Below are positions 2,004 through 22,032 of a stretch of 22,032 bases of DNA, in pieces. A model generated the notes under the pieces. It was given only the letters and a program-made list of their open reading frames with translations. It searched no databases and was not told where the DNA came from. Each line of letters starts with the position of its first letter. Position 1 is the first letter of the stretch. The position numbers were made by a program, and so were the translations under genes. This DNA is from a virus (Duplodnaviria; Heunggongvirae; Uroviricota; Caudoviricetes), in the IMG/VR virus record IMGVR_UViG_2740892235_000005; one strand, written 5' to 3'.

Positions 2004-5000
2004 TCAGCATTCCTCCGTCACGACGCATGGATAACATCACCGCCTGTACCCTCTGGTCTATCAGTTGCACAAGGGTGCCCGCCGCTTCCGGCCCTATCTG
2101 CCCGTTAGCGCCGTCATTCTGAATGGCGATGTGGTACACCGGGGAATACACCAGACCCGCACTGCCGTTCATGCGGCCCACCGCACGCACGCCGAGTGAA
2201 CCATCCGCTGCCCGGGTCAGGGGCATGATGGCTTCAGGTCCGGCCTCCCCCATCAGCCCTGCCCCTTTTGCAAAGGCAAAGTACGTGGGCGTGTCCACAA
2301 TACTGTTACTGTATGCACTCAGGTTTGCCGAGGTATAAACGCCGCCTTTTGCATTTGCCACCGCGCCACCCAGCCAGTTGCCTATACTGCCGAAAAATCC
2401 TCCTGCACCGGACATACTGTTTGCCGCCATCTTAATGCCGTTGACAATGGCCGCATTCATAAGAACTTTTGATATTTCCTGCAGGATTGATGCAGCCCAG
2501 CTGCGCCATTCCACTTTATTTCCGTTCAGCATCTCCGTGATGTTATTCACCATCCCTGAGATACCGTCTGTCGCAAGCTGTGCTGCCTGTGAAGCGTAAT
2601 CTGATGCGCTGTCCACCCAGTTACTTAGCCCTTCCTGCAGCCCTTTCTGCCAGTCAGCACGCTGCGCATCCGATTCGGCATAAAAAGCCTCCTGGTCTTT
2701 CAGTCGTTCACTCAGATACTGCGCATTCTGCGCCAGCGCCTGTCTGTAAAAATCCTCACTGATATCCCCTGTCTGATACTGAGACTGCAGGTCCGCATCC
2801 TTCTGGCGGTAGCCGTCACGAATCTGCTGCAGCTCCCGCATCCGTTCACGGACCCGCTCACCCTGCCCGTACCCCAGCAGCTCAGCGTCATTTGATGCCC
2901 TTTCGTCTGCATTATCATTTTTCAGAGCCTCCTCCCGGGCCCGTAACTGCTCCCGGATTTTCTTCTGGTCAATCAGGGCAGCATTGCGCAGCAGCTCCTG
3001 CTTCTGTATCTCCGTCAGGGTTTTCAGCTCGCCCTGCGAGGTCTGGTATTTCAGTTTTGCCAGTTCTGTATTCTTCCCGGCCAGTGCCAGTTGTTCCTTC
3101 TGCTGCTTCAGCAGACGGGAAAAACTGTCTTCCGCTTTTTCCGCCCCTGATTTTCCGGCCCGGGATTTGGGTTTATTCGCCTCATTATTGCGCCAGGCTT
3201 CCATCGAATTACGGATGTAACGCTGCCTCGCCTCCTGATACGTATCCCCCACCAGACCAAGGTCATCCGCCGCATACCCCAGCCGGGCACGCTCTTTTTC
3301 TTCCCCTTTCAGCCGGGACAGGGCAAGTTGACGCTCTGTGTTATTCAGGGCGCCCTGCTGTTTATCATCCAGAGTGGCCTGTGGCAGTCGCAGCGGTACA
3401 CTCGCCAGTCCCTGACGCTGTTGCAGCAGTTCATTACCCAGCCCCAGCAGGCGGTTGAATTCCGTATGCTGACCGTTCATGATCAGCAGTGACTGATACG
3501 CTTTATTCTGCTCTGCCGCCTGCTGACGAATTAACACAACACGGCGCTCTTCCAGTCCGGCAAGCACATCCTGAATGGACTGCGCTTTTTCCTGCATCTG
3601 TGCCAGACGGGACTGCTCAACAGCAAACTGCTCTGTTGCCTGAGCAAGCTCTTCCGTTACAGTTTTCACCGATGTCAGATGGTTTATCATGAAGCCGTTA
3701 CCGGTCGTCCAGCCCGGATTAGCCAGCACATACTGATACCCGGCGATTTTTTCCTGCAGGGATTTCACCCGGCTGGCCTGCTCATCAATCAGCCGGTTCT
3801 GCTCTGTCAGCGCCTCCCGTGTTCGCCCTTCATTATCTGAGGCTTCAGGCAGAGACATTGATGGCGTTTTATGCGCGATTTCATCAATCGTCAGTGCATA
3901 CTGGTGCGCAGACTCCCTGGCCTGTTCCTGATTCTGGTACAGCGTGTACCATGCGGCAGCTCCCAGCATCACCAGTCCGGGTACGCCTCCAATCAGTCCC
4001 AGCGCACCGCTCATCAGACGTGAGCCCACCGCCGTTGTACTGTTCAGCGCATTCTGGGCGGCGGTTCTGGCAGCAATATTTCTGTTCAGGCGTTCCTGTG
4101 TGACCGCCAGACGGGCCTCTGCGGCAATCTGCATCTCAGTCCCGCGGGCTGCCGCCACAGCCTGCTGAGCCCGGTACACGGCTGCCCTTGCCCGCGCAGT
4201 GGCAATCTGCGTTCCCCTTAACTGGGCCTCAGCCAGTGCCACTTCATTACGTGCAGCGGTCACAAGTCCTGCCGTGGCAGACATCGCTCCGGAAGCCAGA
4301 TTACCAAAGTACCGGGCCACCCCGACAGCAACCAGCACACCCGCAGCTGTTGCCACGGTATCAATATTTCCGGCCACACCGTTCAGCGCGCCGGAGAGCG
4401 TTTTCGTCGCTCCGCTGGCCTCATTCGCGCCGCCCACCCAGGCCATAAAGGCGTTTTCCACCTTCGTGATACTACCGGAAACCGTTTCCGGCATGGCTGC
4501 ATATTCATCACGCAATATCCCCAGCTGGCTGATTAACGCGGGAACGACTTTATCCGCCGTCAGTTGACCATCGTCCGCCATCGCCTTCAGATCCTTACGG
4601 GCCACGCCCATGCCTGCAGCCAGTGCGCGAATGATCCGGTCCCCACTTTCATTGACCGAATTAAATTCCTCGCCGCGCAACACCCCCTGTGCCAGCGCCT
4701 GGCTGAACTGGGTGATCACCGAACCCGCCTCTGCCGCACTGGCACCGGAAATTTTCAGCCCTGTCGAAATGGCCTCCGTCACCTTCAGCACATCATCAGC
4801 ACTGTAACCATATTCACGCATTGAGGCGGCAGAGCGGGCAAACAGGGCCGCATTATCCGAAAATGCGGTGCCTGTCCGCTGGCTGATATCCATCAGCACT
4901 TTCTGTGATGACGCAAATTCATCCGATGACTGCGACGCCTGTTTCAGACGGGCATTCACGGAACCCCATTCATCCGCCAGCGAAATCAGGTGTCCGGTGG

Positions 5001-5285: not shown

Positions 5286-5599
5286 TCATGACTGTGCTGC
5301 AAAGCTCAGCGCGTCTTCCAGCGCCGCAAACGGATCCACCTCCGGCTTATCCTCATCCTCGCCCCAGCAGAGCATGGCGTCCTTCAGTGCAACATTCATC
5401 CCCTGTGCCCCGAAAACCGCTTTCACGATCTGTGCATTACGGATATCCCCGCGCTCATCACCCAGCGGGGATATCCTGTCGAACTCCATCCACATCATCG
5501 CCTCGCTCGCACTCAGGCTGTGCCGCAGTTCGGATAAGGTGCGCCCCAGACGGAGCGCAAGTCGCATCAGAAAGCGAATTTCCGGGCGGGCTACTTTTT
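5286..5599 (-). CDS. T: tail assembly protein T segment, expressed only as a G-T fusion via -1 frameshift
   Basis: ORF in the -1 frame relative to G, open from the slippery site; no independent RBS. Position between G and tape measure matches the lambda G/GT arrangement. Confidence 0.75.
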
Positions 5600-5965
5600 T
5601 CTGGCCGACTCTGCATCAGCGATCAGTTCCAGTGCCTGACGCAGCAAGCGGGCATGTACCGGACCATAGACGGCCAGCACCTGCTCACGGTCGTCCGGAG
5701 TGAACACCCGTTGCAGGTCTGTATCACACAGGACATCGCAGAACAGCGTCACATCCGCTTCCAGGTTACGGCGGGTTTTCGCTACCACCGACAGGGTATC
5801 GTCATCCTCTCCATCACCATTGAGCACTTCCTGCCACAGATACCAGGCCTCTGCCGAAGGCTCCCGCAGCACCACGCTGACATTACCCCATTCCGGCACC
5901 TTCACCGTTTTATGACGAAACCCTGACAGTCTGGCCAGCGCCAGCGTTTTCAGATCCTTTTTCAT
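5591..5965 (-). CDS. G: tail assembly chaperone G
   Basis: ORF with start MKKDLKTL preceded by a G-rich RBS; ends ...ESARKK at the slippery site; lies between the major tail and tape measure genes. Confidence 0.75.
   Translation of the reverse strand: MKKDLKTLALARLSGFRHKTVKVPEWGNVSVVLREPSAEAWYLWQEVLNGDGEDDDTLSVVAKTRRNLEADVTLFCDVLCDTDLQRVFTPDDREQVLAVYGPVHARLLRQALELIADAESARKK
5594..5600 (-). other. programmed -1 ribosomal frameshift slippery heptamer A AAA AAG at end of G
   Basis: Minus-strand mRNA reads ...GCC AGA AAA AAG TAG; a -1 slip on A_AAA_AAG enters the T frame (KKVARPEIRFLMRLALRLG...). Confidence 0.75.
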
Positions 5966-5979
5966 GATGCCCCATCCCC

Positions 5980-6696
5980 TTATCCGGCGGATGCGCTCAC
6001 TGTCACGGTGCATTCAACAGACGTCACACTCTGTGCTTTCTCTGCCGAATCGGTCACCACGCAGGTATATTTCCCCGCATCAGCGGACTGCGCACCTGGC
6101 TTACTGAAGGTGTCTGTCGTCTGCCCGTCAACCGGCTGACCATCCTTCTTCCAGGCGTATTTATACGGCGGCGTTCCCCCGTTGGCACTGACTGACATTG
6201 TCAGCAGCGCACCGGTATTCACGGTAAGTGTCTTATCCAGATTTTTCACAAACGCCAGCGGTACCACAAAGGACACCGGTTTGCCTTTCAGACGCAGTGA
6301 GAACGTTGCAGCCACCACGCCGTTGGTACCGGATGACCAGGTGTGCTGACGCACTTCCGCCAGGAATTTAAAGCCCTTACCGGACGGAAACTGCACCTTA
6401 AACGCATACAACGCGTCATTGTCATAAGCATCACGCAGGGCGTTCTGGGCCTGATTCAGATAAAAATTACCCGACATGGAAATCTCGGACGACGCCCCCA
6501 GACCGTTGATGTTCTCCTGCTCTGTGGAGCAGAGCGTGGTCACATCAATATCCTGTTTCTGACCGGCGGTGAACTGGACTTCCTTGATGGTGCAGTCCAG
6601 GCGCAGATATTCCGCCTTATCCATAGTTTCAGCAGTCGCCGGGGCAGATGAAATCATCACCTGCGTCAGCTGTGAGCGTTCATACAAAGCAGACAT
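5980..6696 (-). CDS. V: major tail protein V with C-terminal Ig-like domain
   Basis: 238-aa ORF; C-terminal region (TPPYKYAWKKDGQPV...GKYTCVVTD...) is Ig-like as in lambda gpV. Strong RBS AGGAGG. Confidence 0.85.
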   Translation of the reverse strand: MSALYERSQLTQVMISSAPATAETMDKAEYLRLDCTIKEVQFTAGQKQDIDVTTLCSTEQENINGLGASSEISMSGNFYLNQAQNALRDAYDNDALYAFKVQFPSGKGFKFLAEVRQHTWSSGTNGVVAATFSLRLKGKPVSFVVPLAFVKNLDKTLTVNTGALLTMSVSANGGTPPYKYAWKKDGQPVDGQTTDTFSKPGAQSADAGKYTCVVTDSAEKAQSVTSVECTVTVSASAG

Positions 6697-18491: not shown

Positions 18492-18531
18492 AAACACAAA
18501 ACCCCGCTTGCTGCCAACAAACGGGGTTTTT
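18492..18531. terminator. bidirectional terminator-like hairpin between endolysin A and the small membrane genes
   Basis: CCCCGCTTG-ctgccaa-CAAACGGGG flanked by AAACACAAAA on one side and TTTTTACTTTTATT on the other. Confidence 0.45.
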
Positions 18532-18620
18532 ACTTTTATTCACTTAGGTTTTGCCAGTTCGCAGGATTTCGTGTTATCCGTCCGCGTTGGCCAACGTCAT
18601 TTTTCAGCAAAATATTCTGC

Positions 18621-18784
18621 TTATCTGTCGATACCCCAGCACGCCAGCGCGCTCTCCTGGTCACGACGGGATACCTGACCATAGCAATTATTTGAGCGGA
18701 TACGGCAGTCTCTGCCACCGTCCTTAATCCACCAGCGAATCGCTTCACACGCTCCCCTGCGATCGCCTGCATTAATTCGTTTAT
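18621..18784 (-). CDS. SAR endolysin copy A, 3' fragment truncated by the scaffold gap
   Basis: In-frame translation ends ...[32 protein letters not shown], paralogous to the C-terminus of the complete lysozyme at 19961..20494 with many synonymous differences. Confidence 0.75.
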
Positions 18785-18794
18785 AAAACGTCGA
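18785..18794. other. assembly gap (10 N)
   Basis: Run of N; the 63 bp before it are identical to 20081..20143. Confidence 1.
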
Positions 18795-19084
18795 NNNNNN
18801 NNNNACACGAGCAGACCGGTTTCCTGCTCAAATTTCAGTCGGTCACGTTCTGACTGGTACCATGCTTTACGCGCATGAGGATCCATTTCCTCGTTATCTA
18901 CAGGCAGAGGAGCTTTCATCAGCTCGGCAAGGATATCTGTCAGTCGGTACAGTTTGAGATTGCTCTCATGGCCACCGGCTGGGCTTATGTTTTTTACCCG
19001 AGCCGCGACAGTCTGTCGATGAGCACCGGATAATGCAGCCAGTTGGGAAATATTCAGATGCAGATTTTTTAATTCACGATCCAT
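18795..19084 (-). CDS. Nu1-like terminase small subunit / winged-HTH DNA-binding protein, N-terminal fragment truncated by gap
   Basis: MDRELKNLHLNISQLAALSGAHRQTVAARVKN... has an N-terminal HTH like lambda gpNu1 and sits about 145 bp downstream of a cos-like GC block; the ORF-track product 18536..19084 is a chimera across the gap. Confidence 0.4.
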
Positions 19085-19496: not shown

Positions 19497-19982
19497 TTAG
19501 TTCAGGCACTGAGTGCGGATATATTCCTGCGCCCCTTCCAGCTGCTTCTGCATTGTCATCAACCGTTCTCTGAGGATGAAATAATCCCGTTCAGCGGTGT
19601 CTGCCAGTCGGGGGCCGGTTGCATTATCCACGCCGGAGGTGCCGGTGGCTTCACGCACGGTACCGTGGCAGGTGGCGTTGATCCGCAGGCGCTTACGACC
19701 AGCGGCAACGTCAGCGCGAAGAGTTTCATTTTCAGCTCTCGCATCGGCTAATTCCCTCGAGTATTTTGCATCGAGCGCAGCAACATCACGCTGGCGCACC
19801 TGCATGTCAGTAATGGTGGCATTCGCCTGTTCCAGCTCTCTGGCTTTTTTATCGCGCTGCGCTTTGTAGGTGATGGCGTTATCGCGGTAATGATTAACAG
19901 CCCATAACAGACAGACGATGATGCAGATAACCAGAGCGTAAATAATCGCGGTTACTCTTCTCACTGATCTATCCCCCAACAA
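19497..19982 (-). CDS. Rz: i-spanin Rz (copy B)
   Basis: 161-aa [38 protein letters not shown]... near-identical to lambda Rz over the N-terminal half; C-terminal third differs from copy A. Confidence 0.9.
19559..19744 (-). CDS. Rz1: o-spanin Rz1 (copy B), embedded in the +1 frame of Rz
   Basis: Lipobox LPLVVSAC then [32 protein letters not shown], very close to lambda Rz1. Confidence 0.85.
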
Positions 19983-20494
19983 GCTAATGCGCTTTCCTGG
20001 TCACGACGAATAACCTGTCCGTAGCAGTTATTTGAACGTGTGCGGCAATCACGCCCACCGTCCTTAATCCACCAGCGAATCGCTTCACACGCTCCCCTGC
20101 GATCGCCTGCATTAATTCGTTTATAAAACGTCGACGGGAAACACTTACCGGGGCCAATGTTGTAAGGACAGAATGACGCAATACCCGCTTTCTGGGGTTC
20201 AGTCAGTGGCACTTTGATGTTTTTCTCCACCCATGCCAGCGCCTTATCCCGTTCGATAGCGTTAACCCGGTCGCATTTTTCCTTCGACAGCTTCATGCCA
20301 GGAATAACAGGCTTACCATCCACCCGGGTGGCTCCACGGCAGATGGTCCAGATACCCGCACCATCACGGTATGCCGTGGTGTGGTTACCTTCTTTTTCGT
20401 CAAGAAACTGGTCGAGGATTTCAGGCGCAGAAGCCCCTGCGGCAATCAGCGCCAGAACGGCAGCTGACAGGCCGTATTTGATTTTTGCGTTCAT
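19961..20494 (-). CDS. R: SAR endolysin (GH24 phage lysozyme with N-terminal signal-arrest-release domain), copy B
   Basis: 177-aa ORF; Gly/Ala-rich weakly hydrophobic N-terminus ([18 protein letters not shown]) and E-x8-D-x5-T catalytic spacing ([16 protein letters not shown]), as in phage 21 R. Confidence 0.85.
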
Positions 20495-20546
20495 GGATAT
20501 TTATCAGGATTTATAGCTCTCTTATTCCTGGATATGTCAGATATAN

Positions 20547-20556
20547 NNNNNNNNNC
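20547..20556. other. assembly gap (10 N)
   Basis: Run of N; sequence after the gap (20557..20830) is about 95% identical to sequence before it (20268..20546). Confidence 1.
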
Positions 20557-20782
20557 GGTCGCATTTTTCCTTCGACAGCTTCATGCCAGGAATCACAGGC
20601 TTACCATCCACCATGATGGCACCTCGGCAGATGGTCCAGATACCCGCACCATCACGGTATGCCGTGGTGTGGTTGCCTTCCTTTTCATCCAGAAACTGGT
20701 CGAGGATTTCAGGCGCAGAAGCCCCTGCGGCAATCAGCGCCAGAACGGCAGCCGACAGGCCGTATTTGATTTTTGCGTTCAT
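20557..20782 (-). CDS. SAR endolysin copy C, 5' fragment truncated by the scaffold gap
   Basis: Encodes [75 protein letters not shown], differing from copy B at a few residues (TRV versus IMV). Confidence 0.7.
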
Positions 20783-20907
20783 GGATATTTATCAGGATTT
20801 ATAGCTCTCTTATTCCTGGATATGTCAGATATATAATCCGGTACTCACGATGAATATAATCAACAGGCACCAGGACACACCCGGTAACAACAAATGAGAT
20901 TTTATAA

Positions 20908-21228
20908 ATGAATAATAATGACAACAATTTACGCAAAGAGTTTTTGCAGATAATGAACGAAAATGTTAAATCAGAATTAAAAGCGCTTATCCCGGATAAC
21001 AGCGAGGCCACTCAGGCCATTCTCTCAGAGCCTTACGGCATGCTTTCAACAGAAACTCTGGATATCATTATCACCACATTAACACCATTGATGCTTCAGC
21101 ATCTGAAGCACAACATTAACAAATGGTTTAATGACGAACTCAGTCACCCGGGTTGTTCATGGGATAAAAACTTTGCCTGTCTGCAAAAAAAACGGCTCTT
21201 CAATAAACTATCGCTTAAGTTCAGATAA
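20908..21228 (+). CDS. hypothetical protein (106 aa) in an AT-rich insert, convergent with the 223-aa gene
   Basis: ORF only; Asn/Lys-rich low-GC sequence typical of acquired cargo; weak RBS; no recognised domain. Confidence 0.35.
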   Translation: MNNNDNNLRKEFLQIMNENVKSELKALIPDNSEATQAILSEPYGMLSTETLDIIITTLTPLMLQHLKHNINKWFNDELSHPGCSWDKNFACLQKKRLFNKLSLKFR

Positions 21229-21879
21229 CCTCTCCCCAAACCGCCCTTTCAGATAAGTCAGTCCGGGATGAAACCAGTAAGCCGGCACTTTTTTAAAGGG
21301 CGGGTTGTCAAACTCACGAAGAAGAGCCTCCCGCACAACTACATCCTTGTCAGCACCACAGGCAAGTGCTTCAATCTCTGCCGCCAGCTGCAGATATCCC
21401 ATGCAGCGACCAATGCGCTGCATCAGCCCCTGCTTTTTATTGTTCTTCATGTAATCAATGGCAAATTCAATAAGCGCCTCACTGTGCTGGTGCGATGCTG
21501 GTGTTACTTTTCCATCTTCACTGATCGTGATATTCCAGTCATCGCTTGTCACAATAAAAGATGGCCGATTACCCCCCCATTCCTGGTCTTTATCCGGTGC
21601 AGACGCAATAAAATAACGTTTATTGCCGTCCTCTCCGGCACTTTTAACCGTAATGGAGTACTTTTCTGACAATGCGGTCGGTAAAAACTTTTCCTGCAAA
21701 ATATTCGCAAAGATCCTGCGAGCAATTTTGATGCAATCATCGTAAAACGCCGCAAACTGCTCATCGCGGCGTTTGTTTGCATCTTCAGAAGGCATCAGCG
21801 CCGACAGTTTTTTATTCAGTTCAGCAATTTCATTTTCCAGACGACTGAAGCGCTGATTCATTTCTTCATGATTCATCAC
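21208..21879 (-). CDS. hypothetical protein (about 222 aa) inserted between pinholin and endolysin
   Basis: ORF with RBS GGAGAG before the ATG at 21876 (GTG at 21879 also possible), coupled to the pinholin stop; N-terminal coiled-coil-like segment; no recognised domain. Confidence 0.55.
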   Translation of the reverse strand: MMNHEEMNQRFSRLENEIAELNKKLSALMPSEDANKRRDEQFAAFYDDCIKIARRIFANILQEKFLPTALSEKYSITVKSAGEDGNKRYFIASAPDKDQEWGGNRPSFIVTSDDWNITISEDGKVTPASHQHSEALIEFAIDYMKNNKKQGLMQRIGRCMGYLQLAAEIEALACGADKDVVVREALLREFDNPPFKKVPAYWFHPGLTYLKGRFGERLSELKR

Positions 21880-22032
21880 CTACTCTCCCCGTGCCGCCTT
21901 ACGACGGTCTTCTTTAATCTTGAAATACAGGTTCGTTAGATATGTCAGCAGCCCAAACAGCAGACTCCCCAGCACGCCTATTGCCGCCCACTGAGACGGG
22001 GAAACCCTGTCCAGCAACTGCAGGAACCAGTA
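21880..22032 (-). CDS. S: class II pinholin (phage 21 S21 / EssD-like), 3' fragment; gene starts beyond window end
   Basis: Minus-strand translation [50 protein letters not shown] matches the recalled C-terminal half of S21/EssD. Confidence 0.75.

Follow-up and report, generated by a model that had tools for sequence, protein, structure and literature searches.

In a stretch of 22,032 nucleotides from a tailed phage (Caudoviricetes; IMG/VR record IMGVR_UViG_2740892235_000005), referred to here in its full length as the window, the pinholin gene S and the signal-arrest-release (SAR) endolysin gene R of a P21-type lysis cassette are separated by two genes that run towards each other: gene A, encoding 222 amino acids (aa) and co-directional with the lysis genes, and gene B, encoding 106 aa on the opposite strand. 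The comparison of their sequences across lambdoid prophages suggests that the two form a conserved tail-to-tail module, which recurs in deeply diverged lineages and at more than one genomic position. That lambdoid late operons take up accessory cargo of the YdfR-family or moron type is known; what is new is the conserved convergent partnership, together with a C-terminal domain in gene A that has no known relatives. Cargo of unknown function in the late/lysis region is also what the original prediction, made by a model from the letters of the window, had proposed, and both genes fit that description.

Gene A (21208-21876, minus strand) starts with an ATG at 21876, 3 nucleotides (nt) past the pinholin stop codon, and its Shine-Dalgarno sequence, GGGGAGAG, sits within the last codons at the 3' end of the holin gene; an alternative GTG start at 21879, directly after the holin stop TAG (21882-21880), would give a product of 223 aa. 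Gene B (20908-21228, plus strand), delimited as an open reading frame (ORF) and by a profile match to the PHROG family phrog_1853, is convergent to the lysis genes and corresponds to the Asn-rich ORF that had been described at this place (12.3% Asn); its coding 3' end overlaps that of gene A, tail to tail, by 21 bp (21208-21228, both strands). Between the start of R and that of gene B lies an AT-rich spacer of 125 bp (20783-20907, taken on both strands), which must also hold the translation start signals of R on the minus strand. The GC content is 38% in gene B, 36% in the spacer and 46% in gene A, against 53.5% in the whole window, so that the insert was rightly called AT-rich with regard to gene B and the spacer, gene A deviating only mildly. 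Every feature that the original prediction had described here is present in the sequence. We regard this anatomy, and the family assignments that accompany it, as very probably correct.

The partnership is best seen in loci whose genes have diverged far from those of the window (retrieved loci are cited by number, e.g., L338). Within E. coli, type A and type B loci alike carry a convergent gene-B homologue directly downstream of gene A. Beyond them, the order in L338 and L339 is Q, HicAB, A (266 aa), a convergent ORF of 105 aa, an ORF of 80 aa, a PF16080 holin, lysozyme and Rz, with 5 nt between A and the convergent ORF; in L173, a DUF4406 gene is followed by A (297 aa) and, with a gap of 0 nt, by a convergent ORF of 111 aa; and in L175, upstream of a GH108 endolysin gene, A (125 aa) lies 6 nt from a convergent ORF of 105 aa. 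Likewise, A stands between Q and HicAB on one side and holin, lysozyme and Rz on the other in Salmonella-type prophages. The small convergent ORFs of L338, L173 and L175 are homologues of gene B, 41-47% identical to that of the window (for the L338 ORF, hhalign against the gene-B profile gives a probability of 100% and an E-value (E) of 6.6e-41), and the C-terminal domains of the A partners in distant lineages are only 30-40% identical to that of the window. Since the tail-to-tail pair has been kept through such deep divergence and in a changed position, the conserved S and R flanks do not explain it. In addition, the divergence of A and that of B correlate (r = 0.61, Mantel p about 0.0005; 28 distinct pairs compared), and both ORFs are real genes under purifying selection, with ratios of non-synonymous to synonymous substitution rates (dN/dS) of 0.11-0.48 in pairwise comparisons of the gene-B family (106 aa; alleles 46-77% identical in protein sequence) where dS is unsaturated, and of 0.13-0.44 in the C-terminal domain of gene A. 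On balance, we rate a functional link between gene A and gene B slightly above even chances.

The product of gene A, predicted to be soluble and cytoplasmic (no transmembrane (TM) segment, pI 6.5), matches phrog_1085, a PHROG family with no assigned function, with an E of 1.4e-98 and over profile positions 117-296 of 296 only, the match being partial because the relatives carry an extra N-terminal module, DUF1327. Among its homologues there are proteins of 287-296 aa named “YdfR family” or “DUF1327 domain-containing” (E 1e-61 to 1e-75), and these long proteins, which bear PF07041 (DUF1327), are 56-63% identical to gene A along 94% of the query, a stretch that takes in its coiled coil and C-terminal domain. 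According to the alignments, the YdfR-type family is modular, consisting of an N-terminal DUF1327, a coiled coil, a variable linker and a conserved C-terminal domain (C-domain) of about 110 aa, and distant relatives of gene A retain the order of DUF1327-like domain, coil and C-domain. Gene A keeps the coiled coil, the linker and the C-domain, and DUF1327 is missing: scanning the 223-aa protein against Pfam at E <= 1, with membership set at the gathering score of 25 bits, did not detect it, and the alignments agree; the sole Pfam match at that E, to Relaxase_C, is a chance one. Judged from these comparisons, gene A is a domain-shuffled member of the YdfR family without DUF1327. Remote homology, by which the original prediction had hoped to identify both proteins, has thus placed gene A in the YdfR family and phrog_1085, and for gene B it leads to phrog_1853 only, a family with no assigned function. 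That neither protein has a recognised motif was correct, since neither gene A nor gene B matches a curated family in Pfam, NCBIfam or PADLOC, and no homology to a housekeeping or phage structural gene was found for either.

The modules of gene A differ in how they are conserved. The N-terminal helical or coiled-coil segment (approximately residues 1-65; 21682-21876, minus strand), for which AlphaFold2 (AF2) predicts helices at residues 4-28 and 33-64, has 98% DNA identity to other S-adjacent genes bearing different C-termini, and some database matches to the locus span only the holin gene and this segment. The variable linker (approximately residues 66-102; 21571-21681, minus strand) was delimited by the alignments and by its low predicted local distance difference test score (pLDDT 28-48), and many members of the family have lost it or carry another sequence in its place. 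The full-length AF2 model is poor (pLDDT 46) and was left out of the fold search for that reason. As for related ORFs, the 80-aa ORF between the A/B pair and the holin gene of L338 (4794-5036), which starts MYKVKVSYILPEGEQVRVAV...LDAYEQAAIEQY, resembles by eye the sequence pattern of DUF1327; it is not detected by Pfam.

The C-domain (about 110-120 aa; 21208-21570, minus strand) is the conserved part of the protein, and carries the motifs GRCMGYLQxAAEIE and PPFKKxPxxWxxPGxxYLK. Modelled alone with a 23-sequence alignment that includes the distant members, it gives a confident prediction (pLDDT 89.4, predicted template modelling score 0.82) of a three-stranded beta-meander with four helices, so that structure prediction, unlike for the full-length protein, was informative here, although it led to no known relative: none is found in PDB, BFVD, Pfam, NCBIfam or PADLOC, and PDB sequence and profile searches with gene A, its C-domain and gene B returned no match. 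The domain is also rare and narrowly distributed. An exhaustive profile search of 1.84 billion cluster representatives recovered only 22 proteins, all of the same architecture or fragments thereof; a scan of GTDB with one genome per species gave 3 loci, in Escherichia and Shigella only; a few Salmonella proteins with the domain exist; and metagenome and IMG/VR scans with a profile of the distant C-domains yielded E. coli-type loci only, the distant lineages being sampled one protein at a time. Invariant residues, in the numbering of the C-domain, are G54, R55, L60, Q61, A63, E65, P91, K93, W99, P102 and Y106, and at the position where Cys is frequent some members have Ser or Ala. As no obvious catalytic or metal-binding set can be recognised among the invariant residues, the C-domain would be a binding module rather than an enzyme.

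How is the slot between S and R filled in other E. coli prophages? All of the 80 IMG/VR loci retrieved with the C-domain have a holin gene, gene A 3-5 nt past the holin stop, and then R; a convergent gene-B homologue is present in 21 of them, the other 59 having the stop of A about 40 nt from the start of R, and DUF1327 is kept in some 35 of the 80. Among 80 loci retrieved with gene B, in turn, gene A accompanies it in 27 and B stands alone in 49, and in nearly all of those with enough flanking sequence B lies between holin and R, convergent to both. Expressed as frequencies, gene B occurs at about 25% of gene-A loci (20/78 viral and 16/63 metagenomic) and gene A at about 36% of gene-B loci (27/76). 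In the B-only loci of the O157 type (L117, approximately 3040-3075; others within L101-L151; L009, 2799-3053), the holin stop is followed by MNKQYELVVK and a stop codon. These 10 codons are a remnant of the 5' end of ydfR (DUF1327), which indicates that the YdfR gene has been deleted there. Further variants are the 933W-type phages, in which S is directly followed by R; Stx2_14040, with the coiled coil fused to a different tail; Stx2_95, with a full YdfR protein of 329 aa and no gene B; and ATCC 25922, with a YdfR pseudogene. The region is therefore made of two layers, a resident co-directional gene of the YdfR family and an optional convergent gene B, each of which is also found alone. Two parts of the original prediction have to be corrected on this account: S and R cannot be taken as normally adjacent, a YdfR-family gene after a P21-type holin being very common (all 80 C-domain loci, and the Qin prophage of K-12), nor is the interruption a single insert of about 1 kb. 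In total, 1279 of 5426 complete E. coli genomes carry DNA matching gene B or the C-domain.

The best-known occupant of the slot is YdfR of E. coli K-12 (b1555), encoded in the cryptic prophage Qin in the order essQ-ydfR-rrrQ, that is, after a P21-type class II holin and before a lysozyme. It is the converse fragment with respect to gene A, as it consists of DUF1327 only and has no C-domain; K-12 has no gene B either. Its 103 aa (L092; MG1655 1640054-1640365) have a counterpart only in the DUF1327 module of family proteins of 290 aa, and by this alignment it appears to be what is left, after truncation, of a larger protein with three modules, a point that matters when the published RNase E interaction is interpreted. 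Two-hybrid and pull-down assays showed residues 1-72 of K-12 YdfR, i.e., DUF1327, to bind RNase E in its N-terminal catalytic half, and RNA co-purifies with the protein (PMC13232886). Gene A, in contrast, lacks precisely this domain, which defines the YdfR family and bears the reported RNase E-binding surface. Judging by identity, the closest sequence relatives of the pair are orf5 and orf6 of the Shiga toxin (Stx) 2 phage 86 (AB255436), where, as in the Stx2a phages Stx2_12E129, the order is S, YdfR-family gene, convergent gene-B homologue and R. The C-domain of orf5 is 76% identical to that of gene A, and orf6 (104 aa) is 49-54% identical to gene B. Nevertheless, orf5 keeps DUF1327 and lacks the coiled coil and linker, unlike gene A, and orf6 is a deeply diverged allele of gene B with a different upstream region that contains a conserved palindrome.

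Gene B encodes a protein predicted to be soluble (pI 7.8, no TM segment), and a Pfam scan of nine divergent members of its family gave no match. Its invariant residues are E18, K21, P42, G44, W73, C83, W85, Q93 and K94. Three possible relationships were considered and rejected: that it is a regulator of the PerC/Pch family (hhalign probability of 0.4% against an O157 PerC-family protein, and no Pfam match), that it is related to the convergent “DUF1823” ORF of PhiR12 phages, and that gene A and gene B are homologous to each other, the last two by comparison. In its setting, gene B agrees with one part of the definition of a moron (Juhala et al. 2000, as cited in PMC10884400), being optional between genes that are adjacent in related phages and atypical in GC content (38% against 53.5%). 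The morons of lambdoid late regions (bor and lom of lambda, gp15 of HK97) are likewise optional, AT-rich and placed between genes adjacent in relatives. From the classic cases it differs in having no clear flanking promoter or terminator, in encoding a soluble product instead of a membrane protein or lipoprotein, and, compared with classic single-gene morons, in being repeatedly linked tail to tail with one particular neighbour. The orientation of gene B has a parallel among these genes, as bor of lambda also lies on the strand opposite to the late operon.

Our preferred reading, to which we give a probability of roughly 40%, is that the S-R region contains an accessory module of lambdoid prophages, made up of two genes whose tail-to-tail arrangement is conserved, with a hand-over between the two genes as the working model. 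Judging from its position and its packing against S, gene A would share its transcript, made from the Q-dependent late promoter, with S, R and Rz; gene B, being on the strand opposite to the late operon, needs its own expression signals. Across loci the coding regions of A and B abut or overlap (-21 to about +25 nt), which leaves no room for an intervening terminator, so that each transcript should run antisense into the other gene; no annotated terminator or RNA family is found between them, and no Rfam family in the whole window. Whether the expression of the two genes is mutually exclusive, as this arrangement implies, we judge to be an even bet. In the proposed sequence of events, B would be made in the lysogen while the late operon is silent, and the antiterminated late transcript would later read antisense through B, silencing it and yielding A at the same time. 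B might then be a moron-type function of the lysogen, acting on the host or excluding other phages, and A a late partner that counteracts or replaces it. An antagonistic or self-immunity relationship between the two proteins is improbable in our estimation, and no better prospects are given to the complete version of it, in which B is an exclusion or host-modulating factor that harms the phage's own lytic growth, is silenced by antisense read-through and is neutralised by the C-domain of A. If it were so, the copies of A without B could act as counter-defence against the B of other lambdoid prophages co-resident in E. coli that make Shiga toxin (STEC). The analogy with BstA/aba (PMC8585504) and Tha (PMC11087260), in which a function of the lysogen is reported to be neutralised in the own lytic cycle, is one of logic only, as there is no sequence or structural similarity.

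Several observations weigh against the two-gene module and its hand-over. The literature search returned no expression data for gene A or gene B (nor anything on the S-R ORFs of Stx phages or on the protein accessions), and a consensus scan of the window for sigma-70 promoters gave none for gene B. The correlation between the divergence of A and that of B is partly due to shared ancestry, and there are discordant combinations in which C-domains 93% identical go with B alleles 46% identical, or C-domains 77% identical with B alleles 99% identical. Such combinations mean that recombination between the two genes is tolerated, and this shuffling of alleles argues against a tightly co-evolving interface between the proteins. 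Moreover, B is missing at 58 of 78 viral and 47 of 63 metagenomic A loci, and an intact A at 49 of 76 B loci. Finally, some distant lineages of A have an unrelated convergent DUF1883 gene in the place of B, or no B at all: in L007, L342 and L343, A is followed by a co-directional ORF of 79 aa and then by the convergent DUF1883 gene (L007 4651-4941, L342 4598-4888 and L343 913-1203, all on the minus strand), and of the loci without B, L341 has A directly before the holin gene and L174 encodes a 189-aa protein with two TM segments.

The main rival explanation reads the same mosaicism differently, taking A and B as unrelated hitch-hikers, A a decaying accessory gene of the YdfR family and B an independent moron, which landed next to it, the two being kept together and in the S-R slot only by the S and R flanks, acting as recombination anchors that move whatever lies between them. 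The flanks are indeed 88-100% identical across loci whose cargo is none, A, B, A and B, or DUF1327 only; alleles of A and B are reshuffled; many copies of A are truncated, unannotated or pseudogenes; and all that is left beside B in the O157-type loci is the 10-codon remnant of ydfR. Nonetheless, anchoring by S and R does not account for a tail-to-tail pairing that recurs outside the S-R slot, between other flanks and with both proteins at 30-47% identity, and decay is at odds with the purifying selection on both genes. We therefore consider this explanation somewhat doubtful.

A role in lysis itself is unlikely in our view. Here gene A, with or without B, would regulate lysis: its cytoplasmic product would attach to the nascent R or to the charged tail at the C-terminus of S and so adjust the timing, B restraining leaky expression of the lysis genes in the lysogen by convergent transcription or through its protein. 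This would agree with the start-after-stop packing of A against a class II holin in all 80 E. coli loci, with the overlap of K-12 ydfR and the start of rrrQ, with the location of all distant homologues at most about 1 kb from holin or endolysin genes (PF04971, PF16080, PF00959, GH108), and with the fact that B always opposes the late transcript, upstream of R or of S-R. However, the gene is dispensable for lysis, as S and R are adjacent in 933W-type phages and many prophages have truncated forms. The absence of a TM segment from the two proteins (maximum Kyte-Doolittle hydropathy over 19 residues, KD19, of 0.92 and 1.23) means that A is no holin-like antiholin. There is no similarity to known lysis regulators in Pfam, PHROG or PDB; specifically, gene A and gene B match nothing in the PHROG “lysis” category and lack the membrane or periplasmic domain and the sequence similarity expected of relatives of S21-71, LydB and T4 RI/RIII. 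Furthermore, the binding partner of the family's only characterised domain is RNase E, not a lysis protein (PMC13232886).

The original prediction had suggested a lysis-timing regulator, an anti-defence factor or an abortive-infection gene, and nothing computed for gene A or gene B speaks decisively for or against any of these. The pair could also be a toxin-antitoxin, abortive-infection or anti-defence system, being a variable and mosaic two-gene locus in a prophage hot spot, with a gene B of atypical base composition, in a region that accepts such cargo, given the HicAB and ParE modules found nearby in related prophages. Still, no match was obtained with the 5027 models of PADLOC-DB 2.0 (a chance one of gene A to JetA, at E 0.049, and none for gene B) nor with the toxin, antitoxin and defence families of Pfam and NCBIfam. 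The convergent orientation is atypical for type II toxin-antitoxin systems, the two genes not forming a co-directional pair; A would by its position be expressed late, whereas most anti-defence genes are early; and either gene is stably kept alone. We consider such a system quite unlikely.

Very unlikely, in turn, is an influence of gene A on the decay of host RNA in late infection, the role that has been proposed for K-12 YdfR. Its relationship to the YdfR/DUF1327 proteins and the two-hybrid and pull-down data on the K-12 protein (PMC13232886) would speak for it, but the RNase E-binding surface was mapped to residues 1-72 of YdfR, which is the DUF1327 wholly missing from gene A. As for an assembly artefact or chance ORFs, which might be suspected from a scaffold of three contigs and from a 10-N gap lying 230 bp away from the insert, they are refuted by the identical arrangement in 27 closed genomes, by more than 100 homologous loci retrieved and by dN/dS values far below 1 for both ORFs.

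Taking the two-gene module up again, its interest lies partly in its location. STEC need the late operon and the lysis cassette of lambdoid prophages to release Shiga toxin, and whatever gene is expressed along with S and R could influence when the cells lyse and the toxin is released. The gene A family, intact or as a remnant, is present in about a quarter of the complete E. coli genomes, including K-12, and still belongs to the uncharacterised “y-ome”. The finding is real and widespread, if moderately surprising, and it turns two anonymous ORFs into a two-gene hypothesis that can be tested. Were a lysogen/lytic switch or a lysis regulator to prove true, it would be a new accessory function in a much-studied phage module; otherwise, the pair would be ordinary mosaic prophage cargo.

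Regarding the flanking genes, the window contains the last 50 codons and the stop of the pinholin gene S (21880-22032, minus strand, from its translation), which is cut by the window end. The complete 71-aa pinholin, taken from a genome 99.9% identical (L002), matches PF04971, “Bacteriophage P21 holin S”, at E 7e-33, and RefSeq names it “class II holin family protein”. On the other side, the 5' part of the endolysin gene R (20556-20782, minus strand) truly adjoins the insert, as its 99.9% identity to L002 indicates, and is cut by a 10-N gap. Its product is a phage lysozyme (PF00959, E 1.9e-24) with a Gly/Ala-rich N-terminal segment of the SAR type. The cassette thus combines a holin of the P21 S family with a lysozyme bearing a weakly hydrophobic N-terminal SAR segment, and this pinholin/SAR-endolysin assignment agrees with published surveys of Stx phages, which place their holins in the P21 family (PMC10462455; PMC8136144).

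The window is a scaffold of three contigs, with 10-N gaps at 18795-18804 and 20546-20555. At 99.9% identity, the last contig (20556-22032) corresponds to L002 5774-7250 of E. coli RM10466, which has the lysozyme gene in full, and 18500-18794 is 100% identical to L002 5346-5640, which spans the 3' end of that lysozyme gene (5467-6000); the end of the first contig (18621-18794, minus strand) is, by this identity, probably where that endolysin gene continues to its 3' end. On the middle contig (18805-20545) there is another Rz/R pair (19497-19982 and 19961-20494, the latter a full-length endolysin gene) only about 92% identical to L002, and by this other R allele the contig is probably a piece of another prophage misplaced in the scaffold. 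ORFs running across the gaps, such as those at 18536-19084 and 20537-20782, are truncated or artefacts. At least 88% of the 1250-bp stretch 20783-22032 is present, at 96.0-99.9% identity, in each of 27 complete E. coli genomes, and in these genomes RefSeq labels both ORFs “hypothetical” and has them flanked by an intact class II holin and an intact lysozyme. The nearby gap, on account of which absence of the insert on resequencing had been named as a possible refutation, is therefore only a scaffolding join.

Some features of gene B and its surroundings deserve mention. The spacer holds two perfect TATAAT hexamers (20832-20837 and 20855-20860) with no recognisable -35 box, and gene B has a weak Shine-Dalgarno sequence. 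No intrinsic terminator for gene B appeared in the consensus scan of the window, and the only terminator-like element, read by eye, is an imperfect hairpin followed by T6 inside gene A. In the window, the 5' leader of gene B does not fold into a stable RNA structure (z = -0.05). Close to its 3' end, the gene contains an A8 homopolymer (21185-21192, plus strand), which is A7 in the IMG/VR loci L012 and L015, where the resulting frameshift gives a 115-aa product with a different tail; from its sequence, the run may be slippage-prone, or the difference may be just a mutation. A similar alternative tail is seen in the 120-aa variant of gene B named P0129.

Upstream of orf6-type gene B (L001 and L004), a palindrome or hairpin, GCCAGTG-N4-8-CACTGGCG, is conserved at approximately 55-85 nt, and the same palindrome is found in the same position upstream of the distant gene-B homologues in L338, L173 and L175. 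A T-run comes after it in the type-B loci of E. coli, and upstream of gene B in the window it is absent. Compensatory changes are lacking in it, which makes an RNA structure indistinguishable from a DNA operator. Other genes settle in this part of related prophages as well: in Salmonella-type lambdoid prophages with distant gene-A homologues, between the antiterminator gene Q and the first late genes, there is a reverse-oriented HicAB module in L338-L342 (approximately 2600-3300) and a ParE/HTH toxin-antitoxin module in L007 (2025-2725). Likewise, in L344-L346, which are E. coli prophages with the P0129 variant of gene B, a toxin gene of the Enterotoxin_a/Scabin-like type (ADP-ribosyltransferase; 3913-4704, minus strand) lies between Q and the holin gene, at the position held by stx in Stx phages.

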